This document shows, piece after piece, positions 2-27,243 of a DNA stretch of 32,000 bases; within the stretch, counting starts at the first letter, position 1, and the number at the start of each line of letters is the position of its first letter. The DNA is from Magnetococcales bacterium WMHbin3 (lineage in GTDB: Bacteria > Pseudomonadota > Magnetococcia > Magnetococcales > Magnetaquicoccaceae): NCBI GenBank assembly GCA_002753185.1, contig PDZX01000001.1, forward strand, positions 128,848 through 160,847, read 5' to 3'. The notes beneath the pieces were generated by a model. It was not told where the DNA came from and did not search any database. It saw only the letters and a program-made list of their open reading frames with translations. Both the position numbers and the translations under genes were made by a program.

Positions 2-1915
2 ACCAGGGGCGAGGTGTTGCTGTTGATCGATGGACTGGATGAAATCAGCGACCCTGCCGTGCGCATGCTCTTCTGCAAGGAACTGGAGCGCATGGTGGCC
101 CGCTATCCCGAAGTGTCCATGGTCGTCACCTCCCGGATCGTCGGCTATCGCAACATGCCTTATCGCATGGGGTCCGGTTTCGAACATGGCGTGATCGCCG
201 AACTGGACCGTAAGGAGAAGGACGGCTTTGCCGAGCGTTGGGTGCGGGTGACCGAACAACATCTGACCGGGGCGGAACAGGCGTTGCGCGTCCAGGAGTT
301 GCGCGACTCCCTGCACTCCAGCGACCGGATTGAGCGGCTCACCGGCAATCCCATGTTGCTGACCACCCTGGCCTTGGTGAAACGCAAGGTTGGCAAACTC
401 CCCAGCCGCCGGACCAAATTGTATGACGAGGCCGTGGGGGTACTGCTGAACTGGAATCCGCGTTACTACCAGACGATTGAGGAGGAGGAGGCCGTTCCGC
501 AGCTTGAATACGTGGCCTACGAGATGTGCCGCCTGGGGGTCCAGCGCCTGTCGGAGAACCAGTTGCTCGATTTGTTGGACGCGGTGCGCAACGACTATAA
601 AAATCTCCGTGCCATCCACCGCCGCAAGCCAGAGGAGTTCCTCGAATTGTTGGAGGCTCGCTCCAGCATCCTCATCTCCGGGCCTGCCTGGGGGGATGAG
701 CAAAAAAATGGCAAAACCGTATGGGAGTTTCGCCATTTGACCTTTCAGGAGTATCTCGCCGCCCGTGCCCTGCTGGATGGCCGTTATCCTAACCGAGACA
801 AAAATCGTTCCCTGGCCGAACAAGTGGCGCCCTTGGCAGGTCAGGTCAAAATGCCAGATTGGTTTTTTCCAGGCGAATTCCAGGACTCCTGGAGCGAAGT
901 GTTGCGGCTTCTGGTTACCGATTGCCGGGACGACGATGTTGATGATGTCATGCTTGCGATTCTCAACCCCTTGCAGGAGGATGAACCGGAACAAAAAGTT
1001 TTTTCACGTATAATTTTGGCGGCCAGATGCCTGACAGATGAGCCGAATGTGAGCGAGGAGGTTGCAAAACAGCTGCTTGAACGATTTGCCGCAAACTTGT
1101 CCAATAATAATGAATTTGATCATTTTTTATATACAGAAGATTTTGCAAAAAGTGAATGGGCTGAATTATTCGCTCAAGCAATGATTAATGAATATTGTCG
1201 TCGATCAGGTGATTCACGTTCGGCTCTAGGTTACAATTATGGATTAATGAAAGTAAGATCTTGGGAGATGTTAGGTAGTAACCTTCAAGAAACTTTAGCA
1301 GAGAGTATGATAAATTTACAATCAAATTCTCGCATCAAAGTAATTGAATCTGCTTTAGAGGTGGCGCAAATTTTGTTAAAAATTCCTGAAATTGAGGTTG
1401 ATGAGCGACTTTCTGGATTCCTCCTGGATTTATTGCAACGCGATGGAGACCTGATTGTCCATCATGCTGCTGCTACTGCATTAATGTGGTTATTTACGTC
1501 TCGTGATGATCATAACGAAAAAGCAATCATGATGCCGAAAAATGACGCGATTATCAAAATATTACATATTTTAGAAAACATACAAAAAGATGAACCTGAA
1601 GTTAAAAGTTATTTAATTTATGCGTTAAACGCAAGCCAGGATCCAAAATTACTCCCAGTCTTTCAATCAAGGCTGGATGATCCATTTGCTATTGTCAGAA
1701 TTGCCGCGATGGATGCAATCTACCGCTTGCGAGGTAAAAACTGGCGCGAAAATGAGCTCTTTGTAGACGAAACCAACACAGTTTATTGGGACCCTCACAA
1801 GCCAATCACGGAAAAACACATCCAAACAGTCGCCAAAGAGCTAAACCGCTCCAGCGAACAAATCCGTGCCGATTACCAAGCCTTGGCTGAGATTTATCAT
1901 CTGAGATTCGCATGA
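2..1915 (+). CDS. NACHT/STAND-family NTPase, C-terminal portion with HEAT-like repeats (5' end outside the window)
   Basis: The frame is open from the window edge (TRGE precedes the track's GTG start). It has a Walker-B-like VLLLIDGLDE and a NACHT-typical LTGNPMLLTTLALV. A helical region follows, with HEAT/PBS-lyase-like repeats near the C-terminus (e.g. LDDPFAIVRIAAMDAIYRL). Stop codon at 1913-1915. Confidence 0.8.
   Translation, partial: TRGEVLLLIDGLDEISDPAVRMLFCKELERMVARYPEVSMVVTSRIVGYRNMPYRMGSGFEHGVIAELDRKEKDGFAERWVRVTEQHLTGAEQALRVQELRDSLHSSDRIERLTGNPMLLTTLALVKRKVGKLPSRRTKLYDEAVGVLLNWNPRYYQTIEEEEAVPQLEYVAYEMCRLGVQRLSENQLLDLLDAVRNDYKNLRAIHRRKPEEFLELLEARSSILISGPAWGDEQKNGKTVWEFRHLTFQEYLAARALLDGRYPNRDKNRSLAEQVAPLAGQVKMPDWFFPGEFQDSWSEVLRLLVTDCRDDDVDDVMLAILNPLQEDEPEQKVFSRIILAARCLTDEPNVSEEVAKQLLERFAANLSNNNEFDHFLYTEDFAKSEWAELFAQAMINEYCRRSGDSRSALGYNYGLMKVRSWEMLGSNLQETLAESMINLQSNSRIKVIESALEVAQILLKIPEIEVDERLSGFLLDLLQRDGDLIVHHAAATALMWLFTSRDDHNEKAIMMPKNDAIIKILHILENIQKDEPEVKSYLIYALNASQDPKLLPVFQSRLDDPFAIVRIAAMDAIYRLRGKNWRENELFVDETNTVYWDPHKPITEKHIQTVAKELNRSSEQIRADYQALAEIYHLRFA
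985..1915 (+). other. AT-rich 3' segment inside the NACHT ORF (compositional chimera)
   Basis: By eye, the sequence changes from GC-rich to AT-rich around 985-1080. It stays AT-rich exactly up to the stop codon at 1915, and GC-rich sequence (cgcgggggcgggtc) resumes immediately after. Confidence 0.7.
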
Positions 1916-4413: not shown

Positions 4414-6585
4414 TCAAAATCCCCCTTCCCGATGGAAAATCTCCAACAAGGTGTTCCACAAGCGGATCAGGGGGCGTTCCGGGCTGGAGGGGAAGGTCAT
4501 CACCCCGCGCGTCACCTGCCCCACGGGGATTGGGGCGTCGGGGGTCAGATCCACCCGGTGGAACGATCCCTCGACGCGTTGTTTCTCCATGTGCTCGCCA
4601 CGTACCGGCACCCCGCCGCCGTGCCGGGCGTCCAGTTCGGGATCGGGCAGGAGGCGGATTGGGGCCGGGTCCTTGCGCAGCACCCGGCCAGGCAGGGGAG
4701 CGGCGGCGGGGTCGTTCGGGTGGAAAATGGCCGTCATGCCGGGGGTGACGCCGGCCAGGTCGCGACCGGCCACGTATCCCTTGATCAGGGGCGTTTGCGG
4801 GTCGATGAGGGTCAACATCGCTTCCCCAGCCGCCACCCGGTCGCCAGGGGCGATCCCCTCGGCGCGTTCCACCACCGTGCCCGCGAAAGGAGCGGATACG
4901 CGCAGTTTTTCCAGTTCCCCGGCGACGAAACGCTGTTCCGCCAGGGCGGTGGTCAACTCCTGTTCCACCACCGCCGGGGCGCGCTCCCGGTTTTTGCCAG
5001 GCTCCGGCGCGTCCACGCCGAGGGCTTCCAGTTCCCAGCGCAGCAGGGTGATGGTCCGGGTCACGCTTTCCATGCGGTAGCGCAATTCGGGGTCGTCGAA
5101 TTCGATCAGAGATTCGCCCAGGGTCACCTCCTGGCCGGTGCGTACCGGAAAACGAGTCACCAGGGCGGCGGTCGGGGCATGGATGACCGTGTGCGCCCCG
5201 GCTTGCAGAACCGCCGGGGCCACGACCCCCGGAAAGCGCGCGGGGGTCAGGGACCAGACCAGCAACGCCATGCCGGACGACAGGGTGATGACCAGGTTGC
5301 GGTTCCAGCGCAACCCCGCGCGCAATCGATGCCAGGCCATGATCTCCCTTCCCACGGGCCGCAGGATGAACCAGCCGATCTCCACCAGAAACAAAAACAG
5401 CCCCAACAGCTTGAAGAAAAAATGGTAGACCAGCAGGGCGATGCCGGCAAACAGAAAAAATCGGTAGCACCACACCACCCAGGCAAAGGCGATCAGGAAC
5501 GCGGCCCGACCCGCTGGCGCCGGTTCCGGAGGGGGATGCCCCCAGCCGAACAGCCACTCGCGCAGCTTCCAGCGTCCCATGGCAAAGGCCCTTTCCTGCA
5601 AATTGGGCAGATCCAGGGCATCCGCGAGGAGAAAATAGCCGTCGAAGCGCATCAGAGGGTTGAGATTGACCGTCAAGGTGACGATCCAGGTGGAACTGGC
5701 CAGCAAAAAGGCCGCCCCGCGCATGGGGCCGTCCTCCAGGAAGCTCCACAGGCAGGCGGCCAGCCCCGCCAGGATCAGTTCCGCCGCCATGCCCGCGCCG
5801 CCCACGGCCAGGCGTTCCCGGCGGCTGGCCAGTTTCCACGCCTCGCTGGTCTCGGTATAAAAGACCGGCCACATCACCAGCAACGCCACCCCCATGGAGG
5901 GCACCCGGCAGCCGAAATGCCTGGCGGTCAGGGCGTGACCCAGTTCGTGCAGCATTTTTCCCGTCAGCAACGCCCCTCCCCAGGCCACCATCCCCAGCGG
6001 ATCGAAGAAGTGGAGGAAGGTCGCCTGGAAGGCCTCCCATTGCCGGATCACCAGCCCCAGGCCGAGCACGGTAAGCGTCAGCACAACCCAGGCGAAGCCG
6101 CGCGTAAACAGCCATGGAATGCCGGGCAGGAGCCGTTGCAAGAACGGATCGGGATGCCACAAGGGGATGCGCAGGAACAGATAATGATGCAACAGCCATT
6201 TTGCCAGTTGCGGTCTGGCCCGTTTTTGCAATTCCAGAAATCGTTGCCGATCCCCCTCGGTTTGAGGGCGCAGCAGGTGATTGCGTTGCAGGTGATCGTG
6301 CAGCGCATCGACCTCTGCGGGGGTGACCCGCAGGGTGGTCTCCCGGTCGATGGCGTCGGCGATGGCCTGAGCCGAGTCCAGTTCCCAGCGTGACAGGATT
6401 TCGAACTCCGGCCACCCCAGCCGGAAAAAACGCCCTGCCGCCGGATCGTGCAACGTCCAGGTGGGAAAACCACCGTCGCCACGGGGACCGGGGTGGAGGG
6501 TCAACTCCTCGCGCAGGGGGGGGAGGGTGGGCACGGAGCACCGTCCAGGTAGCGAGGATCCGGGAACGGGATTGCCATCCGCCAT
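4414..6585 (-). CDS. M50 (site-2-protease-like) zinc metallopeptidase fused to a C-terminal HlyD/barrel-sandwich adaptor-like domain
   Basis: HELGH zinc motif at 5935-5949 (minus strand), embedded in multiple hydrophobic helices. The C-terminal ~250 aa resemble membrane-fusion/HlyD proteins (SAPFAGTVVERAEGIAPGDRVAAGEAMLTLID). I prefer the ATG at 6585 (MADGNPV) to the track start at 6672, because the extra 29 codons are AT-rich intergenic-looking sequence. The start remains uncertain. Confidence 0.85.
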   Translation of the reverse strand: MADGNPVPGSSLPGRCSVPTLPPLREELTLHPGPRGDGGFPTWTLHDPAAGRFFRLGWPEFEILSRWELDSAQAIADAIDRETTLRVTPAEVDALHDHLQRNHLLRPQTEGDRQRFLELQKRARPQLAKWLLHHYLFLRIPLWHPDPFLQRLLPGIPWLFTRGFAWVVLTLTVLGLGLVIRQWEAFQATFLHFFDPLGMVAWGGALLTGKMLHELGHALTARHFGCRVPSMGVALLVMWPVFYTETSEAWKLASRRERLAVGGAGMAAELILAGLAACLWSFLEDGPMRGAAFLLASSTWIVTLTVNLNPLMRFDGYFLLADALDLPNLQERAFAMGRWKLREWLFGWGHPPPEPAPAGRAAFLIAFAWVVWCYRFFLFAGIALLVYHFFFKLLGLFLFLVEIGWFILRPVGREIMAWHRLRAGLRWNRNLVITLSSGMALLVWSLTPARFPGVVAPAVLQAGAHTVIHAPTAALVTRFPVRTGQEVTLGESLIEFDDPELRYRMESVTRTITLLRWELEALGVDAPEPGKNRERAPAVVEQELTTALAEQRFVAGELEKLRVSAPFAGTVVERAEGIAPGDRVAAGEAMLTLIDPQTPLIKGYVAGRDLAGVTPGMTAIFHPNDPAAAPLPGRVLRKDPAPIRLLPDPELDARHGGGVPVRGEHMEKQRVEGSFHRVDLTPDAPIPVGQVTRGVMTFPSSPERPLIRLWNTLLEIFHREGGF

Positions 6586-6826
6586 GCTGCCGGTAGATTT
6601 AAGAATATTTATTTTCATGTGTTTAATATATTTTATTTTGTTATTACAGGCATCACTAGGCTTTTGAATCATTGAAATGTGTGTGTCTATACTTGTCTCG
6701 TGATCTCACGATCATGCAAATTGGTTGCAAGGTCAATCGGCCTTCATGGATAGCGATCCTTTCCGTGCAGTTGGGCCGCCAGAGCGTCTTTTGTCTCCAA
6801 GCGGTTTGCCCCGGATTGAAGACGGG

Positions 6827-6856
6827 TTGACATGCAGGAGCCTTTTTCATTAACCT
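6827..6856 (+). promoter_or_regulatory. candidate sigma70-type promoter for the HEPN/ATPase cassette
   Basis: Perfect -35 TTGACA at 6827-6832. After an 18-nt spacer comes a weak -10 TAACCT (6851-6856). The element lies about 75 bp upstream of the 6929 start codon. Motif match only. Confidence 0.25.
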
Positions 6857-6870
6857 CAAAGTGACAAAGA

Positions 6871-6886
6871 AATTTCCAGGGAAATT
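6871..6886. promoter_or_regulatory. inverted repeat AATTTCC-AG-GGAAATT (possible operator)
   Basis: Two 7-bp arms are separated by 2 nt. The repeat lies between the candidate promoter and the GGAGG ribosome-binding site (6917-6921) of the 6929 ORF. Confidence 0.2.
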
Positions 6887-6928
6887 CTTAGGAACTCCCC
6901 TCTGGCGAACCATGATGGAGGCGGATGA

Positions 6929-7372
6929 ATGGCTCAGCAGACGACAAATCCCATTCGGTGCAATCCTGTGAATATTGCAGAATGGTGCCAGATTGCAAGA
7001 GAACGAGGTACGGATGTGGAGATTCTTTGTAACAACAAAAGATATAACATGTCGTTTTATATAGCGGGTTACGTTATAGAGGCCTATTTAAAAGCATACC
7101 ACATGACGAAAGGATGGCGTCCACCCATATCTGGACGAGTTGGGCATAATCTTTCGGAGTTATGGAAAAAGTCAGAGTTGCAATTCGGTTCTTCAGATGA
7201 AGATGTGGGGGTGGAAGAATTTATCCTACAAAAATGGTCAACTGATTTACGTTATTGTTCCGCAGATGTGTTGCCTGCCAACATTTCGATTGACAATATC
7301 GTGGTTGGGACGAAAAAATTGGCGCGGACCATTGCGAGCGCTGTCAAACGTTCAAAGAGATCCGGCAAATGA
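6929..7372 (+). CDS. HEPN-domain-like protein (147 aa), putative effector or partner of the downstream ATPase
   Basis: GGAGG lies 7 nt upstream of the ATG. The helical pattern matches classical HEPN (PF05168-type): YVIEAYLKAY, then GHNLSELW, then DLRY. I could not find a canonical Rx4-6H catalytic motif. The stop overlaps the next start (ATGA at 7369-7372). Confidence 0.7.
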   Translation: MAQQTTNPIRCNPVNIAEWCQIARERGTDVEILCNNKRYNMSFYIAGYVIEAYLKAYHMTKGWRPPISGRVGHNLSELWKKSELQFGSSDEDVGVEEFILQKWSTDLRYCSADVLPANISIDNIVVGTKKLARTIASAVKRSKRSGK

Positions 7373-10026
7373 GCCACAAGGAAATCATCAATAAAGTCCG
7401 TGAGAATCTTCGAGAATGCAATATCACGGATCCGGATATTCGGCTGCAACCGGATCATTTCCAGCCAAATGAATGGAGGATTGCAGTTATTTCATCACAA
7501 TTTTTAAATATTGATAATAATGATAGAGAAGAGATTGCATTAAAAAATTTAAATAATATAAAATTTCAATGGAAGGATTTTCTGACGCCAGAGGAAGCGG
7601 AATGGGCGGGACCGCTACCCAGTGCCGGGGACCCGGAGCATCTTCCCCTTTGGCCGGAAGTCCTCGCAGGCGAACCTGCGAGCGAATGGATCGATACCGC
7701 ATTTCCCACGGACGCCGATGATGATTTATCCCCTCCTATCGTCGTTACCTTTTATTCCCTGCGAGGTGGGGTTGGTCGTTCCACGGCCATGGCTTATACG
7801 GCAAAATTGCTTGCGGCCAAAGGCCGCAAAGTGATCTGCGTTGATATGGACCTTGAAGCTCCTGGATTGACATCGCTTTTTGCTATCTCCGAAGAAAAAA
7901 TCCGCTTACTGGAAGATGGAAAATCTCTAAGGGGGGTCATTGCATTGCTCGAAGAGTTGGATGCGGGTGGAAAACCTGATTTTGCCCAGCACCTGATCCC
8001 GGTCAATAAATACGACTCCCTGTTCCTGCTTCCTGCTGGCGTTCCGGGTGCGGAATATGCCAGGCAACTGCGCCTCATTACACCTGATTTTTGGTACAAG
8101 GAGGAACACAATCCTTTACAAGAGTTCTTTGAAGCGTTAGCGACGCGGCTTTTTTTCAAGCCAGACTTCATTCTTCTCGACGCTCGAACAGGACTCTCCG
8201 ATATAAGTGGGCCTTTATTGTTTGGATTGTCAGATATGGCAATCATAACATTTTTTCCTCATCCCCAGGCGGAAAGAGGCACAAGATTGTTGACCCGTGG
8301 ACTTCTTCGTGCAAAAGTCAAACGTTCCGGTCGTGATGGGAACCTCTCCCCTGTTCCCCGGTTCCTGGTGTCGCCTGTTCCGCAAAGCAATGCGCCTGAA
8401 GTCAAGAAGAGGTATCGGGATCGCGCCTTGGGATGGGTCGCATCCTGGATGAAGGCCGCACAACAAACCCGCCAGGACAAGGGATTGGAGGAGATTCTCG
8501 AGGAGGAAATCACCCATTTTGTGGAATACAGAGAAGATGTCGCGACATCGGATGCGATCCTTGAGTTCGATAATGAAAAATCTCCATATGATAAATTGGC
8601 GGAATGGATTGAGCGGTTGTTGCCGCAATATGGAGAACAGGTTGCCCAACATCAGGTCAAGGCTGGCAAGCAGCAGGTTCTCGACCAGTTGACGATCGCT
8701 CCGGGGACTGCGGAACATCAGGAGGATTTGCTCAAGCATTTCATTATCATTGATACCGTTACACGCGCGATGGATGAAAAGATCAATCTCGTCCGTGGTC
8801 GCAAAGGTACAGGAAAAACGGCGCTTTTCAGATGGTTAACCGAAAGCGAAGACTATAAATTAAAAGTAATTATCGTACATGCCCCGCAAGGACTTTCCAA
8901 TAATCCATCCTGGATGATGAGTTACGATGGATTCAAGGAGGTCGAACGAATCCTTGCTGCGGCGGATGCGGAATGGAGGCATTTTTGGGGTTATTACTGT
9001 TGCATTGCCGTGCAACATTTTCTACATGAGCATGACCACTCCGTAAACGTTGCCGCACCCCTGCCGAGTAGCGTATCGGGTTTCTTGGATGCATTCGACC
9101 AAACACTGAAAAGGACGCGATTTGGTATTCGAATCGAGGAAGATATTAAACAATTGAATGAGCAACTGGCCTCGAATTCATCATGTATTTTGATCATGGA
9201 TGGCCTGGATACAGGATTTGGCAGCACCGATGAAGACTTGATGCGACGCAAAAGGGCTGTTGAAGGCCTTTTTTCATTTTTCATGGAAATTTCTTCATCC
9301 CTGGATCGTTTGAAATTTAAAATATTTTTAAGAGAAGATGTTTGGCAAACCATCAACTTTCAAAATAAAAGTCATATGTTTGGTCGAACAGAGATTTTGA
9401 GATGGAAAGATCAAACGGATTATTTAAAAGTGATCATCAAACAAATTATGAATCATAGAGTGTTCGTCGATTTTCTTGCACGTTCCAAAGAAACAAAAAA
9501 TCTGGCAAACATCCCTGACGATCAATGGAGTTCTGACGATATTAATAATGTCTGGAACCTCCTGGTGGGCGAGCGCATGAAGGGAGGAAATGCGACATTC
9601 ACCCGAAATTGGATATGGACCCGCCTTGCCGACGGCAACGACGATCATACACCAAGATTTCTTCTGCAATTATTCTCTCATGCAATCAAATGGGAAAGGG
9701 ATGAACAGAAGAAGAATAATTACGATAAAAGCATAATACGGCCGCGCAGCCTGATTGATTGCTTATCAAAAGTATCCAATGATGCGGTCTCGTCGCTGAA
9801 AGAAGAATTTCAGGAACTTGCGCCCTTGTTTTCTCAATTATCAAGCATCGGTTATACACCTATTCAGAAAAACGATCTACAGTCACAAGAAGATCTCATT
9901 GAGTTGGCCAGGGAGATCGGATTGCTGCACGTATATGAAACAGACACAATGGGTAATGCCGTGCGTTACAAAGTTCCGGACATTTATCGAATCGCGTTGG
10001 GAATGACTCGCAAAGGGCAGGCATGA
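7369..10026 (+). CDS. 885-aa multidomain NTPase: small N-terminal domain, ParA/MinD-like (SIMIBI) module with a deviant P-loop, and a second Walker A/B P-loop NTPase module with a C-terminal extension
   Basis: Module 1 has SLRGGVGRST (7756-7785), VDMDLEAPG and the Walker-B-like FILLDARTG. Module 2 has GRKGTGKT (8797-8820) and ILIMDGLD (9187-9210). It is a long uninterrupted ORF translationally coupled to the upstream ORF. Confidence 0.9.
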   Translation: MSHKEIINKVRENLRECNITDPDIRLQPDHFQPNEWRIAVISSQFLNIDNNDREEIALKNLNNIKFQWKDFLTPEEAEWAGPLPSAGDPEHLPLWPEVLAGEPASEWIDTAFPTDADDDLSPPIVVTFYSLRGGVGRSTAMAYTAKLLAAKGRKVICVDMDLEAPGLTSLFAISEEKIRLLEDGKSLRGVIALLEELDAGGKPDFAQHLIPVNKYDSLFLLPAGVPGAEYARQLRLITPDFWYKEEHNPLQEFFEALATRLFFKPDFILLDARTGLSDISGPLLFGLSDMAIITFFPHPQAERGTRLLTRGLLRAKVKRSGRDGNLSPVPRFLVSPVPQSNAPEVKKRYRDRALGWVASWMKAAQQTRQDKGLEEILEEEITHFVEYREDVATSDAILEFDNEKSPYDKLAEWIERLLPQYGEQVAQHQVKAGKQQVLDQLTIAPGTAEHQEDLLKHFIIIDTVTRAMDEKINLVRGRKGTGKTALFRWLTESEDYKLKVIIVHAPQGLSNNPSWMMSYDGFKEVERILAAADAEWRHFWGYYCCIAVQHFLHEHDHSVNVAAPLPSSVSGFLDAFDQTLKRTRFGIRIEEDIKQLNEQLASNSSCILIMDGLDTGFGSTDEDLMRRKRAVEGLFSFFMEISSSLDRLKFKIFLREDVWQTINFQNKSHMFGRTEILRWKDQTDYLKVIIKQIMNHRVFVDFLARSKETKNLANIPDDQWSSDDINNVWNLLVGERMKGGNATFTRNWIWTRLADGNDDHTPRFLLQLFSHAIKWERDEQKKNNYDKSIIRPRSLIDCLSKVSNDAVSSLKEEFQELAPLFSQLSSIGYTPIQKNDLQSQEDLIELAREIGLLHVYETDTMGNAVRYKVPDIYRIALGMTRKGQA

Positions 10027-10049
10027 GATGGTAGTCACGCATCCCAGCC

Positions 10050-11390
10050 TCACATCCCCGTTACCCGCCGGGCCATGGCCAGGGGACGTCTCAGCAGATA
10101 ATACCAGAGAGATACCTCCTCTCCAAGGATCCGGGCCGCGCCGCGCACGCCCAGGGCGGGCAGGGGTTCTCCAGGGGGAAAATCGGCCTTGAGACGGTAC
10201 GCCAGGATCCCATCCGGGAGAAGTTCGGCACGATAACTCGAATAACGTAACACAGCACGGAAGCGACGACCGGGTTCGGCGGCGCCGAACAGCTCGATGG
10301 GGGCGCCTTTAGGAAAACTCAGCGCGTCGGCCACGGGGAGATAAATCTCCAACTCCACCTTGGCAGGGTCGGCCAGCATCAGAATTTTTTCACCAATCGC
10401 CACTGGACGACCCAGCCAGTCGTTGGCATCGCCGAAAACCGCCACCCCGTCGCGGCTGGCGGTCACCCGCACCCGCTCCACCTGCTGACGCAAGAATTCC
10501 AGATCCGCCCCCTTCTGCTCCATGCGCCCTTTCAACAGTGCCTGGCGGGTGGCGTCACGGGGATTGCGCAACGCGGTCTGCACCGCCTGCCGGTACTCGG
10601 CCCGCGCCACCTCCAACTCGGTTCGGGTGACGGCCAGCCGGTTCGACAGCTTGCGGGCGTCGAGACTGAAGAGCGCCTGGCCGGCGCTCACCACCTGGTT
10701 GGGCGTGACGTGGAATTCGTCCACCACCCCCTCCAACGGGGCGCGCACCAGCACCGGATCACGGGGGATCACCTCTGCTGGGGCCACCACCGACTGCCGC
10801 ACCGGCAACCACGACAAAAGCAAAACCAATGCAACCAACAACAAACGCCCTCTGCCGGGCAACCCCTCCCGCAAACGCCGCCAAAAGGATCTCCTGGCCC
10901 GCAACCCCCACCAGACCGGCGCAGAGGTGAGCAGCAATTGGGAAAACAGCACCTTCTCCCCCTCGCTCCAGGGTTCCTCGCGCGCCAGCAACAACCCCCC
11001 CAACGGACGACCGGCCTCCCCGGACAAGGCGATCGGCAGCCAAAGGGCGTGGCGCGGCAGCCACTCGTCCCATGCCTCGCCCAGGGAGGGTGGCAGATCT
11101 TTTGACTGTATGGAAACGGGATCCGTGTTTGTCTGCAAATGATTGCAAATTGCAGAAATCCAGCGCACGAAGGGGGTTTCCTGGTCGGGCAGCGGAATGC
11201 CGGACAACGCCTCCACCCGTCCGTTCGGGTCGGCGCGCCACAGAACGGCCTGCCGGTACGGCGCCAGATAGACCGTCTCGTTGACGAGGGAGTAATGAAA
11301 CTCCTCCAGGGTGGTGGTGCCGGCGATGCGTTGCTGGAGATTGAGCAACGCACCCAGGATCGAATCGAGGGGTTGCCCGGCGGTGCTCAT
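10050..11390 (-). CDS. HlyD-family membrane-fusion/adaptor protein with an N-terminal cytoplasmic domain (tentatively GAF-like) and one TM helix
   Basis: The ATG at 11390 overlaps the upstream stop (ATGA at 11387-11390), so I rejected the track's 72-codon Arg/Gly-rich extension. A TM segment (LLLVALVLLLSWLP) is followed by a coiled-coil plus barrel-sandwich pattern typical of HlyD proteins. Confidence 0.8.
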   Translation of the reverse strand: MSTAGQPLDSILGALLNLQQRIAGTTTLEEFHYSLVNETVYLAPYRQAVLWRADPNGRVEALSGIPLPDQETPFVRWISAICNHLQTNTDPVSIQSKDLPPSLGEAWDEWLPRHALWLPIALSGEAGRPLGGLLLAREEPWSEGEKVLFSQLLLTSAPVWWGLRARRSFWRRLREGLPGRGRLLLVALVLLLSWLPVRQSVVAPAEVIPRDPVLVRAPLEGVVDEFHVTPNQVVSAGQALFSLDARKLSNRLAVTRTELEVARAEYRQAVQTALRNPRDATRQALLKGRMEQKGADLEFLRQQVERVRVTASRDGVAVFGDANDWLGRPVAIGEKILMLADPAKVELEIYLPVADALSFPKGAPIELFGAAEPGRRFRAVLRYSSYRAELLPDGILAYRLKADFPPGEPLPALGVRGAARILGEEVSLWYYLLRRPLAMARRVTGM

Positions 11391-12151
11391 GGCGTGGCGG
11401 CGGGGCGCCCCCCTCCCAGCGTGACCCGTCCGCTCATGCCAGGGGTGAGTTCCGGAAAAACGCCCAGGATCTCGCCGTTGATCTTGACCTGCTGCCCCAC
11501 CGCGTCGATCCTGGCGCCAATCGCGCGGATCGCCGCCGGATAGCTCTTGCCGGTCTCGTCGATGCGCACCAGGAACCGCTCCCGCGCGGCGAGCCGTTGC
11601 AGCCAACGGGAGGGAATGTTGAACAGCAGTTCCAACGTGCGGGGATCGTGAATTTCCAGCAATGCTTCCCCTGGCTTGACGTATTGATGTTCCCGCGCAT
11701 TCAGGGTCACCACCCGGCCCGCGAAGGGGGCGAGGACCTGGCAGCCGCCGATTTCAGCGCGAATGATGGCTACCTCGGCCTGCGCCTTCTCCTCCTCGGC
11801 CTTGGCCACGACCATCTCCATGCGGCTGGTGACGTTGAGGTTGTCCAGCCTTTCCTGCACTTTGGCCTTGGCGCTCTCCGCCTGCAACGCCGCCTTGGCG
11901 CGGTTCAGGCGCGCTTGCAGGATTTCGCAGTTCAGGGAAACCAGCAGATCCCCCTTGGCGAAGGCATCCCCCTCGCGAAACGGAATCCGCAGAATGCGCG
12001 CCGCCATCTCCGAGGAAAGGGTGGTGAAATGACGCGCCACCAACTCCGCGCGCACCTCCATCTCCTCGACCGGCGCAGCGCCAGACGACTCCTCGCCCCA
12101 GGCCAAACCAGGCAACAGGGCCAGCAGGATTGCCATGTGGTATTTTCTCAT
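11387..12151 (-). CDS. HlyD/biotin-lipoyl-like periplasmic adaptor protein with a signal peptide
   Basis: N-terminal signal sequence MRKYHMAILLALLPGLAWGEE. A lipoyl-like hairpin (FREGDAFAKGDLLVSL) is followed by a coiled coil and then APFAGRVVTLNAREHQYVKPGEALLEI. Confidence 0.85.
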   Translation of the reverse strand: MRKYHMAILLALLPGLAWGEESSGAAPVEEMEVRAELVARHFTTLSSEMAARILRIPFREGDAFAKGDLLVSLNCEILQARLNRAKAALQAESAKAKVQERLDNLNVTSRMEMVVAKAEEEKAQAEVAIIRAEIGGCQVLAPFAGRVVTLNAREHQYVKPGEALLEIHDPRTLELLFNIPSRWLQRLAARERFLVRIDETGKSYPAAIRAIGARIDAVGQQVKINGEILGVFPELTPGMSGRVTLGGGRPAATP

Positions 12152-12242
12152 GAAACGAGCATAGCATTATGGCTTGAATGTTGAAAGAGATTGGGGTTAA
12201 TCTTGCCGTCGATGCTCCTGCCCGCCCCTTTTTGGTTGCGCC

Positions 12243-12542
12243 ATGTCACTTGCCACCCATCGTCATCGACCGCTGCTGCTCTGGGGAAGCCTCGGATTGC
12301 TGCTGGCGGGCAGTCTGATCGCCGAGCAGTCCGGCGACAACGACATCCGCCCCACGGCCAGGGGAGCAGGGGATCTGCCGCCGGGATTCTCCAAAGGCTC
12401 CGCGGAAATCCGCCCCGGTGACGATCCGATGCGCAACCGGTGTCGATCCCGTGACGGCTCCCATGGCGTCAATGGCGCGCCACGTCTGTGGGATGCCCTC
12501 GGCGATTGTCCGGTGAATGGAGGTGGCGATGTCGAGCGCTAG
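12243..12542 (+). CDS. possible small secreted protein (99 aa)
   Basis: Signal-peptide-like N-terminus (RPLLLWGSLGLLLAGSLIAEQ). GC-rich third positions resemble host genes. No motif recognised. It overlaps the start of the next gene. Weak call. Confidence 0.3.
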   Translation: MSLATHRHRPLLLWGSLGLLLAGSLIAEQSGDNDIRPTARGAGDLPPGFSKGSAEIRPGDDPMRNRCRSRDGSHGVNGAPRLWDALGDCPVNGGGDVER

Positions 12543-14649
12543 ATTCCTGCTGGCGACCCTGACCGTGCTCCTGGCGACGGCCCTTTTGCTGTACGCCTGG
12601 CGCCACGCCCCGGAAAGAAAAGAGGTGCTGGCCATCGGTCTGGGCGCCCCCCTGAGCGGCCCCTTCCGGGAGATCGGACACTCCATGCGCCGGGGCGCCG
12701 AACTGGCCGTCCAGCACATCAACCAGCGCGGCGAGTTGAAGAATTTCACCCTGGAACTGGTCCCCGCCGACGACAAGAGCGGCACCAACGTCAATGTCCA
12801 GGCCGAAAAGGCGGCCAGGGAACTCATGACCCGCTCCAACATCGTCGGCGTGGTGGGACATTACTTCAGCGTGCCCACCATCGACGCGGGCGATATCTAC
12901 CGCATGCATTCCATCCCCTTCGTCACCCCCTCCGCCACCTTGCCGACCCTGACCGCCAACAACGACTGGGCCTTCGGCATCATGCCCGACGACTACTATC
13001 AGGCCCTGTTCCTGGCCAATTACGTGATCCACGGCCTCAACCGCAAAAAGATCGCTGTGATCCACTCCAGGGATCCCTACGGCAACTCCCTGAGCGAGTT
13101 CTTCGTCAAGGAGTTGCAGGTCAACAATCTCAAGCCCACCGTGTTCGTCGGTCTCGACAAGGAGAATTTCCAGCCGGAACGGCTCAAGGAGCATATCGAT
13201 GCCCTGAACCAGTCCGAAATCGTCTTCCTGGCCATGAACTACGTCAACGCGGCCAAGGCGATCCAGTTCCTGCGCAAAAACAGCATGAATGCCGACTTCA
13301 TCGGCGCCGAAAGCCTGGGTGGCGCTCATTTCCTCCAGGAGGCGGGGATCTACGCCGAGGATGTCTACGCCGTCACCCCCTACCTCCCCAGCCTGTTCGG
13401 CGAGGAGTCGAAACATTACCAGCACGACTACATCAAGGAGTTCCAACGCGAGCCGGACTGGGTCTCCACCTACTCCTACGAGGCGGTCAAGCTCCTGGCG
13501 CACGCTATCGGCCAGGTGGGCAAGGATGGCACGCGCATGCGCAACTTCATGCGCAAGATGATCTCCCATCAGGAGGCCCTGTCCGGCATCGCCGGAGACC
13601 TCCATTTCAACGAAACCGGCTCCAGCCGACGTCCTCTTTCGGTCGGGCAGGTCAAGCAGGGGCGTTTCATCCCGGCCCGTTTCCAGTTGACCCCTGTCAA
13701 GTACCAGGAACTGGCCAAGGCCAAGAGCGAAGAGGAGGGGGCCGACATCTTCACCATGGAGGGACGCTTCATGAAGCGGGCCACCGTGGTCTACACCGGC
13801 ATTCACGTCGATGAGATCAAGGCCTTCAACCCGGTGGAAGGCTCCTTTGTCGCCGATTTCAATCTCTGGTTCCGCTGGGATCCGGGCAGGAACAAGAATC
13901 TCGATTTCGAGATGACTTACGGCAAGGTGTTGACCGCCAGCGTGCGGGAAAAATATTTCGATGACAAGACAAACAATAATTTCATCTCTTATGCCGTCTC
14001 CTCCCGCATGGTGGACGAATTCCCCCTGCACGAGTACCCCTTCGATCAGCAGGTCCTGAAAATCCGCATCAAGCCGAAACTCAAGACCAGCGAGGAGTTG
14101 ATCCTGGTGACCGACATCGATGACGATACCCTCTTGCACCGGAAACTGGATTTCGGCTCCTGGAAGGATATCCGGCATTTTCATTTCACCAGTTCCAGGG
14201 AGTTCCTGTGGAGTTACCGCAATCCCAAGTACGACCGCAAGCTCTTCACCCTCGATCACTCCCAGTACAATTACCATGTCATCCTGGAGCGGAAGGTGGC
14301 GGCCTATGTGATCACCCTGCTGCCGCTGATGATCCTGGTGGCGTCGGCCTACGTGATCTTCACCATCGACTTCGAGTGGATCTCCTCCCGCTATACCGTG
14401 GGCATCACCACCATGTTGAGCGCCATGGCCTATCACAATGTCAACAAGCTGGGCGTGGGCTACCTGGTGCGGGGGGATCTCTTTTTCCTTTTTTCCTATG
14501 TCCTGTTCTTTTTCACCATCCTGGAGACCTCGGTGGTGGGATATTTTCGCAAGATCAAACGGGTGGAGATCGCGCAGCGGTTGGACATCATCTCCCTGAT
14601 CCTCTACCCGATTCTGGTCGGCGTTGCATTGGTCTTTTTGCTGAGGTGA
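12529..14649 (+). CDS. type-I periplasmic-binding-protein domain (LivJ/amide-receptor-like) fused to a prokaryotic pentameric ligand-gated ion channel (Cys-loop family homologue)
   Basis: GGAGG at 12519-12523 favours the ATG at 12529; the track start at 12517 is an alternative. The N-terminal ~350 aa look PBP1-like (LAIGLGAPLSGPF, RRGAELAV). The C-terminal part has the YPFDQQ signature (14035-14052). After that come an M1-like segment (RKVAAYVITLLPLMILVASAYVIF), M2 (RYTVGITTMLSAMAY), M3 and a short loop before M4. Confidence 0.9.
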   Translation: MSSARFLLATLTVLLATALLLYAWRHAPERKEVLAIGLGAPLSGPFREIGHSMRRGAELAVQHINQRGELKNFTLELVPADDKSGTNVNVQAEKAARELMTRSNIVGVVGHYFSVPTIDAGDIYRMHSIPFVTPSATLPTLTANNDWAFGIMPDDYYQALFLANYVIHGLNRKKIAVIHSRDPYGNSLSEFFVKELQVNNLKPTVFVGLDKENFQPERLKEHIDALNQSEIVFLAMNYVNAAKAIQFLRKNSMNADFIGAESLGGAHFLQEAGIYAEDVYAVTPYLPSLFGEESKHYQHDYIKEFQREPDWVSTYSYEAVKLLAHAIGQVGKDGTRMRNFMRKMISHQEALSGIAGDLHFNETGSSRRPLSVGQVKQGRFIPARFQLTPVKYQELAKAKSEEEGADIFTMEGRFMKRATVVYTGIHVDEIKAFNPVEGSFVADFNLWFRWDPGRNKNLDFEMTYGKVLTASVREKYFDDKTNNNFISYAVSSRMVDEFPLHEYPFDQQVLKIRIKPKLKTSEELILVTDIDDDTLLHRKLDFGSWKDIRHFHFTSSREFLWSYRNPKYDRKLFTLDHSQYNYHVILERKVAAYVITLLPLMILVASAYVIFTIDFEWISSRYTVGITTMLSAMAYHNVNKLGVGYLVRGDLFFLFSYVLFFFTILETSVVGYFRKIKRVEIAQRLDIISLILYPILVGVALVFLLR

Positions 14650-25216: not shown

Positions 25217-25726
25217 TCAATGAACGGGCAGAGGCTTGATCTTCATGAAAGAGATCACGCGATTTTTGACTTCTTCCAGTTCGTTGACGTTTTTTTCAGG
25301 GCCAGGCGTCTCGACAAAGAGAGGTTCTTCTTGTTCGTTCTGCTTGTGGATTTTCATGGAACGGGCCTGAAATACCTTCTCGAACAGTTTTTTGGGTTGT
25401 TCCCTGAGGTCTTCCACAAGGGTGTCGAGATCATGGCGCGCATCCATCATCGCCAGAAGGTTGTGGAGTTTCCGGTGGATCTCCGGAGATGCGTTATGAA
25501 AGACGATCTTGTGGTGTTCCGGGTTGATGGCGAAGAACAGTTGGAGAAACATACCCATGGATGAGGGTGCGATCTGCTGGACTTTGGCCAGTTCGAAATG
25601 CAGGGTGGTTTCTCCGGCGTTGCCGAGGTTCTCGATCAACCTGGAAAAGGTTCGATAGGAACGGAAGGTGATTTTTTTGCCCTTGAACCGGACGATCCAA
25701 TCGCGACCGGCGATATCGATGATCAT
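25217..25726 (-). CDS. hypothetical protein with a tentatively STAS-like N-terminal domain and a charged C-terminal tail
   Basis: Clean 169-aa ORF of intermediate G+C. The pattern IVRFKGKKITF...LHFELAKVQQIAPSSMGMFLQLF...KIVFHNASPEIHRKL resembles the anti-sigma-antagonist/STAS topology. Pattern match only. Confidence 0.55.
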   Translation of the reverse strand: MIIDIAGRDWIVRFKGKKITFRSYRTFSRLIENLGNAGETTLHFELAKVQQIAPSSMGMFLQLFFAINPEHHKIVFHNASPEIHRKLHNLLAMMDARHDLDTLVEDLREQPKKLFEKVFQARSMKIHKQNEQEEPLFVETPGPEKNVNELEEVKNRVISFMKIKPLPVH

Positions 25727-25992: not shown

Positions 25993-26712
25993 TCAATAAT
26001 TTTCCATCTCAGAATCATCAGGGTCGTCAATCACAACGTCCAAGTATTTATAAAATATGGGATTTATAATACAACTTTGTTCGCGAGATCGTAAAATTTT
26101 CCAGGCTTCTTTTTCAGGTGTGATGTGAGAAATCCAATCTCTAGGAAAGCCAAGCTCATCTAAAGCGTCATCTAAAGACTTTCCATTTCTATTGAAGTTG
26201 CTTTCTGTAAAATACCATTTTGGATCGACAATGTATTTAAATTTATCATAACAATCAAATATGATCAAAATTATTGATTTAAAATAATTTATACATGCCT
26301 GCTTTGCATTAATTAATTCACATCCATTATTGTCACCCATGTTTGGCACTAACAGTACATCTGATTGATCGTGATGCAATATCTGAGCAGCCAAATAAAG
26401 TTTAAGATACTCCAAAGGTACTTCATTATACGGATTTTCTCCTTTGTGAACGACAATATTCCTAATTTCAACAAAATATCTTGCTAATGGATCAAGATTA
26501 AGTTTTTCTCTGGCAATGGAGTACCACGTATCGAATCCATCAATCCCTTTCATGCTGGCCTGGAGAGCAAAGGTAACGCTTCTTGAGGCTGACACAAAAG
26601 CGCTGAAATAATATCTTACCTCAAAGTCATTTTTATTACACGCCTGGATTTTTTCAAGAAAAAACTCAGCTTCGTAAAGTTTATTTTCAACAACGCCAAA
26701 TGAACAAGCCAT
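25993..26712 (-). CDS. HEPN-like protein with a canonical RNxxxH motif (239 aa), putative RNase-type toxin or Abi effector
   Basis: A strongly AT-rich ORF in a GC-rich context. RNIVVH is encoded at 26446-26463 (minus strand). It is preceded by helices (LYEAEFFLEKI, YYFSAFVSASRSVTFAL) arranged as in Abi-type HEPN families. Confidence 0.75.
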   Translation of the reverse strand: MACSFGVVENKLYEAEFFLEKIQACNKNDFEVRYYFSAFVSASRSVTFALQASMKGIDGFDTWYSIAREKLNLDPLARYFVEIRNIVVHKGENPYNEVPLEYLKLYLAAQILHHDQSDVLLVPNMGDNNGCELINAKQACINYFKSIILIIFDCYDKFKYIVDPKWYFTESNFNRNGKSLDDALDELGFPRDWISHITPEKEAWKILRSREQSCIINPIFYKYLDVVIDDPDDSEMENY

Positions 26713-26817: not shown

Positions 26818-27210
26818 TTACTCCAGACGCAACGCGGCTTTCGCCGCGCGTGCCAGGAAGCCGGATCGACTCAAATGGTGCGCCTTGGCGTAATCATCGA
26901 TGCGCCGGACCAGGGGTTCAGGCAGCAAGATATTCAACCGCAACGCCTTGGGACGAATCCGGGCAGTGTCGATATCGACCAGCATCCAAACTCCTCCCTG
27001 GTACTCCTCCAGGGGGGTCAGCAACTCCAAGGCAGTGGGAAAAGGGATCTCCATGGACTCCCCGTCAAAGTGGACTTCCGCCGCCTCCTGGACCATGGCG
27101 GGAATCTCCTCCCAGCGATCCGCAGCAGAAAAGCATCCTGGGAAATCGGGAATGGTCACGCCGTGCGCGTGGTCATGGTTCCCTGGATGCACATAAACGG
27201 GATACAACAT
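26818..27210 (-). CDS. hicB: HicB-family antitoxin with a C-terminal ribbon-helix-helix (CopG-like) DNA-binding domain
   Basis: The N-terminus MLYPVYVHPGNHDHAHGVTIPDFPGCFSAADRWEE is typical of the HicB fold. The C-terminus RLNILLPEPLVRRIDDYAKAHHLSRSGFLARAA is RHH-like. GGAGG lies 5 nt upstream of the ATG at 27210, so I prefer that start to 27222. Confidence 0.85.
   Translation of the reverse strand: MLYPVYVHPGNHDHAHGVTIPDFPGCFSAADRWEEIPAMVQEAAEVHFDGESMEIPFPTALELLTPLEEYQGGVWMLVDIDTARIRPKALRLNILLPEPLVRRIDDYAKAHHLSRSGFLARAAKAALRLE
26819..26832 (+). repeat. 14-bp direct repeat TACTCCAGACGCAA (right copy, overlapping the hicB stop codon and last codons)
   Basis: Identical to 25958-25971. It includes two bases of the hicB TAA stop. 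Confidence 0.5.
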
Positions 27211-27243
27211 GGTCACCTCCATTCACCGCCCCGGCTGCACCGC

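Follow-up and report, generated by a model that had tools for sequence, protein, structure and literature searches.

Introduction

HEPN-MNT modules, in which a HEPN protein of the PF05168 or DUF86 type is combined with a minimal nucleotidyltransferase (MNT), are type VII toxin-antitoxin (TA) systems. The present study concerns a small HEPN gene with a different nucleotide-using partner, found in a 32,000-nucleotide stretch of Magnetococcales bacterium WMHbin3 (contig PDZX01000001.1, positions 128,848 to 160,847), which is referred to as the window. The two genes encode a HEPN-domain protein of 147 aa and a multidomain nucleoside triphosphatase (NTPase) of 885 aa. The closest described system is PDC-M28, a cassette of three protein families (CAS_00115, FAM_01482>>FAM_02546>>FAM_01036; listed with the number 121, taken here as a count), which belongs to a set of candidate systems picked for their embedding in BREX, DISARM or type I restriction-modification (RM) loci (Payne et al., bioRxiv 10.1101/2024.01.29.577857).

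Here, the gene pair is compared with PDC-M28 and other described systems, and its conservation, genomic sites and domain structure are analyzed. The function that we favor, to which we give about an even chance, is that of an NTP-driven sensor or switch that controls the small HEPN partner in conflicts with phages or plasmids.

Family Matches Place the Gene Pair in PDC-M28

PADLOC models of both ATPase components of PDC-M28 match the 885-aa protein. PDC-M28B is matched by PDLC04559 (E 4.9e-24, residues 121-322) and PDLC04560 (E 3.4e-12), and PDC-M28C by PDLC04561 (E 2.1e-20), for which residues 449-839 correspond to model positions 24-409 of 480. PADLOC and NCBIfam scans of the window HEPN alone gave nothing useful, and the link to PDC-M28A surfaced only via 32 HEPN homologues from equivalent genomic positions: 28 of these match PDC-M28A (best E 2.9e-8), and most are related to the window HEPN with phmmer E values of 6e-30 to 1e-7.

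The families and their order are the same as in the catalogued cassette, namely a HEPN protein (A), a KGGVGR ParA-fold ATPase (B) and a Sll1717 AAA+ ATPase (C). However, PDC-M28 consists of three genes (A>>B>>C), whereas B and C form one polypeptide here, its divergence keeps the window HEPN itself from matching the A models, and the window instance lies outside any BREX, DISARM or RM locus. Judged by these matches, the pair is the B-C fused form of PDC-M28, a catalogued phage-defence candidate, and it is not categorically new. A previous reading of this DNA, made from the letters alone and called here the sequence-only reading, had not recognized the combination as any named defence system, a view that does not hold in the light of the PDC-M28 matches and of a dyad proposed in 2013 (see below). 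In this case, "known" means catalogued, not characterized. The three-gene PDC-M28 rule of PADLOC may miss the fused form, so the family may be under-counted.

The dyad consists of a HEPN protein of the MAE_18760 family and a ParA/Soj protein and was proposed to be a TA system in which HEPN is the effector and the ATPase its nucleotide-dependent regulator (Anantharaman et al., 2013, PMC3710099). Like the window pair, it joins a small HEPN gene with a gene for a SIMIBI/ParA-fold ATPase. The MAE_18760 HEPNs are listed there with an Rx4-6H motif, whereas the window HEPN has none and falls in PF05168, and the second, ORC/Cdc6-like AAA+ module of the window ATPase is not mentioned in the text consulted.

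With HEPN-MNT systems, the pair shares the HEPN subtype signature (ExxxK, GH, RY; the nearest solved relative is ST0689/1wol) and the tight coupling of a small HEPN gene to a nucleotide-using partner gene. It differs in having a dual P-loop NTPase as partner and in the gene order, with HEPN first. No MNT gene is part of the cassette, and the 80 loci compared below have only HEPN and the ATPase in common.

Defence ATPases of the STAND and ORC/Cdc6 types (Avs/NLR-like; BrxC, BrxD, DUF499/HmaC) resemble the AAA+ core of the window ATPase, with its hhhhDGLD Walker B, helical lid and putative winged helix. HEPN recurs as a partner of such ATPases, e.g., in HEPN-DUF499 fusions (PMC12839542). Unlike these proteins, the window ATPase has no repeat-type sensor domain (TPR, LRR, WD40), adds a ParA-fold module and a BolA-like domain, and is accompanied by a HEPN encoded separately, with neither a methyltransferase nor a helicase as partner. 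AbiV, from a Lactococcus two-component antiphage system (PDB 9bj5, 9bj6, 9bj7), has a HEPN fold without canonical Rx4-6H as well, and is said in PMC3710099 to use an alternative conserved histidine. It is, however, a weak structural match (E 0.6-2.4, TM ∼0.4) without sequence similarity, and it has no ATPase partner. Nothing relevant on KGGVGR, Sll1717 or PDC-M28 turned up in full-text searches of the literature, and the system is not described in the DefensePredictor and BREX-diversity papers.

The Pair Is a Co-inherited and Mobile Two-Gene Cassette

The gene for the HEPN-domain protein, the PDC-M28A-type component, is located at 6929..7372 (+) and is followed by the gene for the multidomain NTPase (fused PDC-M28B + PDC-M28C) at 7369..10026 (+). 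The junction reads ggcaaATGAgcc, in which the HEPN stop TGA (7370-7372) overlaps the ATPase ATG (7369-7371) as a 4-bp ATGA, and the ATPase gene is translationally coupled to the HEPN gene via this overlap. Both open reading frames (ORFs) and the overlap are positioned exactly as the sequence-only reading had given them.

A scan of species-representative genomes yielded at least 502 loci with relatives, of which 80, from at least 10 phyla, were retained for locus comparison. The sampled taxa comprise Magnetococcales, Chromatiaceae, Desulfobacterota, Myxococcota, many Cyanobacteria, Actinobacteria, Firmicutes, Acidobacteria, Chloroflexi, Bacteroidota, Dormiibacterota and one bin labelled archaeal. 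All-against-all clustering of the 983 ORFs of these loci showed that only the ATPase (78 loci) and HEPN are widely common, and no third conserved gene was found. Using the HEPN profile, a HEPN gene was identified directly upstream and on the same strand in 72 of the 78 assessable loci, and as a fragment in one more; the identical 4-bp overlap is present in 28 loci. A conserved HEPN neighbour, for which the sequence-only reading had suggested to look, is thus found in 72-73 of 78 loci, while the loci without it appear to be disrupted by insertion sequences, frameshifted or decayed. In Halochromatium roseum (L036, 6371-7879), an ATPase with the P-loop SLKGGVGRT has no HEPN upstream. Its upstream ORFs were read by eye as DUF29-like and as a Uma2-like endonuclease, and this locus could represent either partner replacement or decay.

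HEPN and the ATPase co-evolve: their pairwise identities correlate strongly (Mantel r = 0.87, 69 loci), and none of 999 permutations gave a value as high. The family is large on both sides. More than 1155 homologues of the ATPase were found; the best 120 are 852-893 aa long and align over 98-100% of the query with 44-66% identity, and the B-C fusion is conserved at full length in all of them. One database protein, from a metagenome-assembled genome (MAG) of Magnetococcales, is 100% identical to the window ATPase. For HEPN, a profile search against 1.84 billion representatives identified 676 cluster representatives at E ≤ 1e-10. A word-indexed protein search returned only 2, then 22 HEPN relatives, which is due to the tool and not to rarity.

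On average, the GC content of the pair lies 5.8 points under that of its flanks, and the gap exceeds 3 points in 46 of 67 loci. The closest Magnetococcales relative has the pair at a different site, between two histidine-kinase genes. It is concluded that the pair is a co-inherited, mobile two-gene cassette. A Lamprocystis MAG carries two fused copies on separate contigs (L004, L071).

The Cassette Is Inserted Into a HlyD/M50 Secretion Operon

In the window, the pair (6929-10026) has a GC content of 45.6% vs. 63.5% for the 5-kb flank on either side, and the GC profile drops from ∼0.63-0.67 in the flanks to 0.39-0.51 between ∼6550 and 10030. The inserted low-GC segment of ∼3.46 kb (6586..10049) contains the whole cassette, in the orientation opposite to that of the operon which it splits. 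Its borders are the stop of a HlyD-family gene (10050) and the likely start of an M50/HlyD gene (∼6585). The former gene encodes a 518-aa protein (HlyD-518; 10050-11606, -) and has another HlyD gene upstream, the HlyD region being 10050-12151 (-). The latter encodes an M50-peptidase/HlyD fusion (4414 to ∼6585/6672, -). Its annotated start at 6672 falls within the AT-rich insert, and therefore the true start is probably near 6585.

The insertion was examined in 24 metagenome loci encoding M50/HlyD relatives, 19 of which also hold a HlyD-518 homologue. In all 19, the two genes abut or overlap, with the end of the HlyD-518 homologue 66-107 nt ahead of the position aligned to M50/HlyD residue 33, and there is no space for an insert. 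Because the flanking genes abut in 19/19 loci, the segment is a genuine lineage-specific insertion into a compact operon. Together with its composition, this confirms the earlier description of an AT-richer segment in an unrelated operon: the segment is a foreign, horizontally acquired insertion that splits a compact HlyD/M50 secretion operon. No convincing flanking direct repeats or att sites were found at the insert borders.

The 5′ part of the insert is an AT-rich non-coding leader of the HEPN gene (6586..6928, +) with sigma-70-like consensus matches, for example TTGAAT-18-TATACT at 6664-6693, which is a consensus match only. Promoter and terminator scans gave consensus-level matches only, with counts close to the shuffled expectation, and no Rfam family matched anywhere in the window. 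Transcription from upstream would need to cross the 3.4-kb cassette in antisense before reaching the M50/HlyD gene, and expression of the HlyD/M50 operon may be affected by the insertion.

The Small Protein Has a HEPN Fold With Invariant Polar Residues

The 147-aa protein matches Pfam PF05168 (HEPN) with 32.7 bits, above the curated cutoff of 22 bits (E 9.1e-8). Its AlphaFold2 (AF2) model, built from 21 sequences, is an all-helical bundle with a predicted local distance difference test score (pLDDT) of 88.9 and a predicted TM score (pTM) of 0.84. The six best Foldseek matches in the PDB are all HEPN proteins (ST0689/1wol, AF_0298/2hsb, TT1696/1ufb, 4nqf, sacsin HEPN and TM0613), with probabilities of 0.95-1.00, yet modest E values of 2.7e-3 to 0.12. 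Thus, the small protein belongs to the HEPN fold, as had been proposed from its helical motifs.

The alignment of the 32 homologues shows no variation at R26, Y44, G47, Y48, E51, K55, H73, R108 or Y109, and the sequences end in a basic tail. The motif YVIEAYLKAY contains Y48, E51 and K55, GHNLSELW contains H73, L75 and L78, and DLRY contains R108 and Y109. All motifs quoted in the sequence-only reading, for HEPN as well as for the ATPase (76 homologues), are present and fall on invariant or near-invariant positions.

The NTPase Combines a Variant ParA Fold With an ORC/Cdc6-Like AAA+ Module

Five parts are resolved in the AF2 model of the 885-aa protein (76 sequences; pLDDT 88.9, pTM 0.81). The N-terminal alpha/beta domain (aa 1-80; 7369..7608, +) has a BolA-like alpha-beta-beta-alpha-beta-alpha topology and is followed by a conserved linker with LPLWPE (aa 92-97). 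BolA PF01722 is matched by 6 of 10 homologues at E 0.012-0.24, all under the 25.7-bit cutoff, and a PF01722 search with the window protein itself gave no match. Some homologues are labelled "stress-induced morphogen/BolA" by JGI. The likeness to BolA, with which the topology is compatible, is a resemblance only.

The second part is a ParA/MinD-fold (SIMIBI) module of the "KGGVGR-motif variant" type (aa ∼121-400; 7729..8568, +). It matches NCBIfam NF047398 (KGGVGR-motif variant AAA ATPase) with 146.7 bits against a 90-bit cutoff (residues 124-311), as well as the Pfam families CbiA, AAA_31 and ParA, and Foldseek aligns it with Borrelia PF-32, BcsQ, MinD, Soj and FleN (E 5.9e-8 to 1e-5, target TM 0.6-0.72). 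The P-loop SLRGGVGRST (130-139) reads R132-G-G-V-G-R137-S, so that both the signature and the catalytic lysine are replaced by arginine and the deviant Walker A KGGxxK[ST] does not apply. Across the 76 homologues R137 never changes, and the conservation of R132 is at least 90%. The switch aspartates D159 and D161 (VDMDLEAPG) and the Walker B D271 (LLDARTG) are kept. The module behaves like a ParA-fold domain without being a canonical ParA/MinD member; the "ParA/MinD-like" label of the sequence-only reading is accordingly right for the fold and wrong for an ordinary Walker A. Weak scores of this module against Mrp/NUBPL/ApbC iron-sulfur (Fe-S) carrier models coincide with the BolA-like N-domain.

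A helical linker connects the ParA-fold module to the fourth part, a Sll1717-family AAA+ module of ORC/Cdc6- or STAND-like type (aa ∼447-840; 8707..9888, +). It matches NCBIfam NF047389 (P-loop ATPase, Sll1717 family) with 122.7 bits against a 75-bit cutoff over residues 447-840, and several full-length homologues carry the Sll1717-family name in NCBI and UniRef. Pfam matches are AAA_22, AAA and ORC-CDC6-like, with weak NACHT and nSTAND, and Foldseek returned the Cdc6/Orc1 structures 2qby_A (1.8e-5) and 1fnn_A (2.8e-5). Walker A GRKGTGKT (477-484, K483) and Walker B ILIMDGLD (D611, D614) are invariant in the 76 homologues; the latter is of the NACHT/ORC-style hhhhDGLD type and is followed by a helical lid. 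That one chain holds two unlike P-loop modules had been recognized correctly before, the first of them as ParA/MinD-like; the second is ORC/Cdc6-like AAA+ by the matches given here. The last part consists of a C-terminal helix and beta-hairpin (aa ∼834-885; 9868..10023, +; DSSP H834-850, E854-858, E864-868), which in the model may be read as a winged-helix-like domain. The protein ends in the tail YRxxLGMTRKGQA, which is conserved in the family consensus and recurs where C is a separate protein, on an Enterobacter plasmid. The ∼270 aa that had been left unassigned at the C-terminus are therefore largely accounted for by the Sll1717 model, with the helical lid and the putative winged helix.

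The BolA and Fe-S carrier scores raise the question of a housekeeping role, either as a BolA/Mrp-like Fe-S or morphogenesis factor or as an ATPase that partitions chromosomes or plasmids with the help of an accessory protein. Besides the weak matches of the N-domain and of the ParA-fold module, the database names "ParA family protein" and "BcsQ", which are among those given to homologues, point in this direction. All scores for housekeeping families are, however, far under their cutoffs, whereas NF047398 and NF047389 pass. Moreover, the distribution is patchy with variable genomic sites, the GC content is foreign and the cassette sits within an operon, relatives occur on prophages and plasmids, and the surroundings of the pair show no conserved ParB, centromere or Fe-S partner. 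A housekeeping role is highly improbable and was rejected on distribution, composition and sub-threshold scores.

In another possible reading, the ATPase itself is the effector. Its ParA-fold and ORC/Cdc6-like modules and the putative winged helix would attach to invading DNA and keep it from being replicated, partitioned or packaged, and HEPN would be a non-catalytic nucleotide-binding or adaptor subunit whose ExxxK/H/RY site binds nucleotide and tunes the switch. Both ATPase folds are typical of DNA handling, as in ParA/Soj and in Cdc6/Orc1 on origin DNA (2qby), and KGGVGR ATPases are found, too, with a DNA-binding MqsA-like gene as partner instead of HEPN. On the HEPN side, the catalytic Rx4-6H is missing and the ExxxK + GH + RY pattern aligns with the nucleotide-binding HEPN type (ST0689). 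Nucleotides are bound by the C-domain of kanamycin nucleotidyltransferase and by the sacsin HEPN. However, the ATPase has neither a nuclease nor another killing domain, and invariant H and R residues, as in this HEPN, are met more typically in catalytic sites than in sites that only bind. HEPNs with alternative histidines can be RNases, AbiV being called an RNase in PDB 9bj6, and toxic HEPNs without the motif are noted in PMC3710099. We regard an effector role of the ATPase as unlikely.

Relatives on Plasmids and Prophage-Like Contigs

All 8 IMG/VR matches, which are prophage-like contigs, carry the split three-gene form, with repressor, integrase, terminase and Q-like genes as neighbours. Further instances are on a Calothrix plasmid, where a type III res gene and a DUF450 gene adjoin, and on Enterobacter and Burkholderia conjugative plasmids, the Enterobacter one with an adjoining integrase gene. 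In a Syntrophobacteraceae MAG (L001), a fused pair (7585-10619, +) and a split HEPN/B/C triple (10982-14219, -) lie next to each other in convergent orientation. A distant fused pair (28% identity) adjoins hsdR on a Nostoc plasmid. The split homologue on the Enterobacter plasmid pSurvcare220 (L092, 4072-7402) is an enterobacterial version that may be easier to study in E. coli.

The KGGVGR ATPase domain also occurs with other partners. On a Sinorhizobium plasmid, it is part of a 734-aa TIR-annotated protein (L091, 4989-7193). On Massilia and Rhizobium plasmids, a 619-aa KGGVGR ATPase is coupled to an upstream "MqsA family antitoxin" gene (L097, 3434-5854; L098, 3486-5854), such that the MqsA-like gene takes the place of HEPN. 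Since the module is fused to TIR in one case and lies downstream of an MqsA-like gene in the other, it is suggested to be a hub ATPase with exchangeable partners. Two more TIR genes and a UvrD-helicase domain gene are present in the Sinorhizobium region.

Plasmid location and tight gene coupling are also what an addiction module would display. In such a TA system, HEPN would be a constitutively toxic RNase and the large ATPase its antitoxin, neutralizing it by nucleotide-dependent sequestration or by modification, e.g., of an invariant tyrosine, and the cassette would mainly stabilize mobile DNA rather than sense phage. HEPN toxins of HEPN-MNT systems are controlled by tyrosine AMPylation, and Y44, Y48 and Y109 of the present HEPN are invariant. 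Two of the plasmid-borne cassettes have an adjoining recombinase/integrase gene, and other TA genes are sometimes near. PMC3710099 proposes the same model for HEPN + ParA/Soj dyads and names kinases among MinD/ParA-fold proteins. On the other hand, the MAE_18760 HEPN of that dyad is listed there with Rx4-6H, which is missing from the window HEPN, the arginine at the P-loop lysine position argues against efficient phosphotransfer, and a dual NTPase of 885 aa with a putative winged helix goes far beyond known antitoxins in complexity and looks like a sensor. ATPase-only loci exist and no HEPN-only locus was seen, which is neutral to mildly against addiction in its simple form. An addiction module has a limited but real chance of being the right explanation.

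Proposed Function of the Cassette

The sensor/switch function favored here starts from the domain content. Both proteins would be co-produced, owing to their coupling at the ATGA junction, and would assemble into a complex. The AAA+ module, together with the putative C-terminal winged helix, would recognize a nucleic acid or a protein as the cue for an invader, and ATP binding would shift the oligomeric state of this module, which is the likely sensor and oligomerizer. The ParA-fold module would serve as a nucleotide-dependent dimerization or latch element and not as a fast ATPase; nucleotide binding with little or no hydrolysis is suggested because of its Arg-for-Lys P-loop. The latch would release or juxtapose HEPN subunits, the likely output of the system, in which the invariant H73, R108, Y109, E51 and K55 would make a non-canonical active or ligand-binding site, and RNA damage or growth arrest would then block phage or plasmid propagation. 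The invariance of Walker A and B of the AAA+ module and of the polar residues of HEPN counts in favor of this reading, as do the PDC-M28 matches, the co-inheritance and mobility of the pair, the phage, plasmid and restriction-gene surroundings of its relatives, and the fusion of the KGGVGR module to TIR. The sequence-only reading had likewise proposed an NTP-dependent sensor/effector system, of which the domains, the adjacency of the genes and the foreign origin stand. An RNase effector role, however, is an assumption, because HEPN has no Rx4-6H.

Several observations weigh against the sensor/switch. The first concern the proteins themselves. No R-x(4-6)-H RNase motif is present anywhere in the 147-aa HEPN sequence: R108 is followed by Y109 with no conserved His after it, and the invariant H73 is located on an earlier helix. 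In alignment, its ExxxK + GH + RY pattern corresponds to that of the classical PF05168/ST0689 type, many members of which are without demonstrated nuclease activity. With Arg for Lys in the first P-loop of the ATPase, the ParA-fold module could be no NTPase at all. No HEPN-ATPase fusion was found among the best 150 of the 676 HEPN relatives (89-347 aa), and for this reason a physical interaction of the two proteins is a prediction only.

The second group concerns genomic context. The neighbours of the pair in the window are secretion, glycosyltransferase, chemotaxis/signalling and two-component genes. Among 148 flanking ORFs of 34 fused loci, PADLOC and Pfam searches, read as aggregate counts, revealed no recurrent defence neighbour. 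The neighbours are heterogeneous and mostly housekeeping, with at most 3 of 148 in any one family; the largest shared families are three ABC-type ATPases and two PIN proteins. A defence context was seen only for relatives that are split or distant and lie on plasmids or prophage-like contigs. In addition, tblastn against GenBank phages found no homologue, and blastn of E. coli complete genomes with the Enterobacter homologue found no match. The window HEPN has no PADLOC match at E ≤ 1, and the 145 "phage defence candidates" (PDC) are stated to be untested by the authors who catalogued them (bioRxiv 10.1101/2024.01.29.577857).

A more specific idea, to which we give only a small chance, is that the Arg/Arg ParA-fold domain and the motif-less HEPN with its ExxxK/His/Arg-Tyr site act jointly in a chemistry that would be new to defence systems. 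The two may form a composite nucleotide site, or the ATPase may modify an invariant HEPN tyrosine, by analogy with MNT-driven AMPylation. In either version, the STAND/ORC-like AAA+ sensor may gate HEPN by a nucleotide-dependent latch and not by simple oligomerization. If true, this would be a new regulatory logic for HEPN effectors and would give a function to the widespread "KGGVGR" variant P-loop, which is also a partner of TIR and MqsA-like modules.

The interest of the cassette lies in its breadth, its unusual P-loop and its HEPN without the RNase motif. If it is phage-defensive, as we infer, a dual-NTPase/HEPN system would join the known repertoire, two NCBIfam families (KGGVGR-variant ATPase and Sll1717 ATPase) would receive a function, and it would show how a HEPN without Rx4-6H acts.

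Other Observations in the Window

A second low-GC islet (GC 0.32 at 26001-26500) contains a 239-aa ORF (25993-26712, -) without a Pfam match. Its product includes EIRNIVVHKG, a canonical HEPN-type R-x4-H motif, and it may represent another HEPN-type toxin or Abi gene in the window. It is flanked by ORFs at 26818-27222 (-) and 25217-25726 (-); one neighbour is a HicB-like antitoxin gene (PF15919, E 4.5e-41), another an ORF with a weak STAS-domain match.

At the left edge, positions 14-1915 (+) encode the 3′ part of a NACHT/STAND-like NTPase that runs off the window. The visible part begins at the Walker B "LLLIDGLDE"; the NACHT match is weak (E 0.022), and C-terminal HEAT repeats were identified (E 5.2e-7). 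The C-terminal half of this NTPase lies in a low-GC stretch, with values of 0.38-0.44 at 1001-2000.

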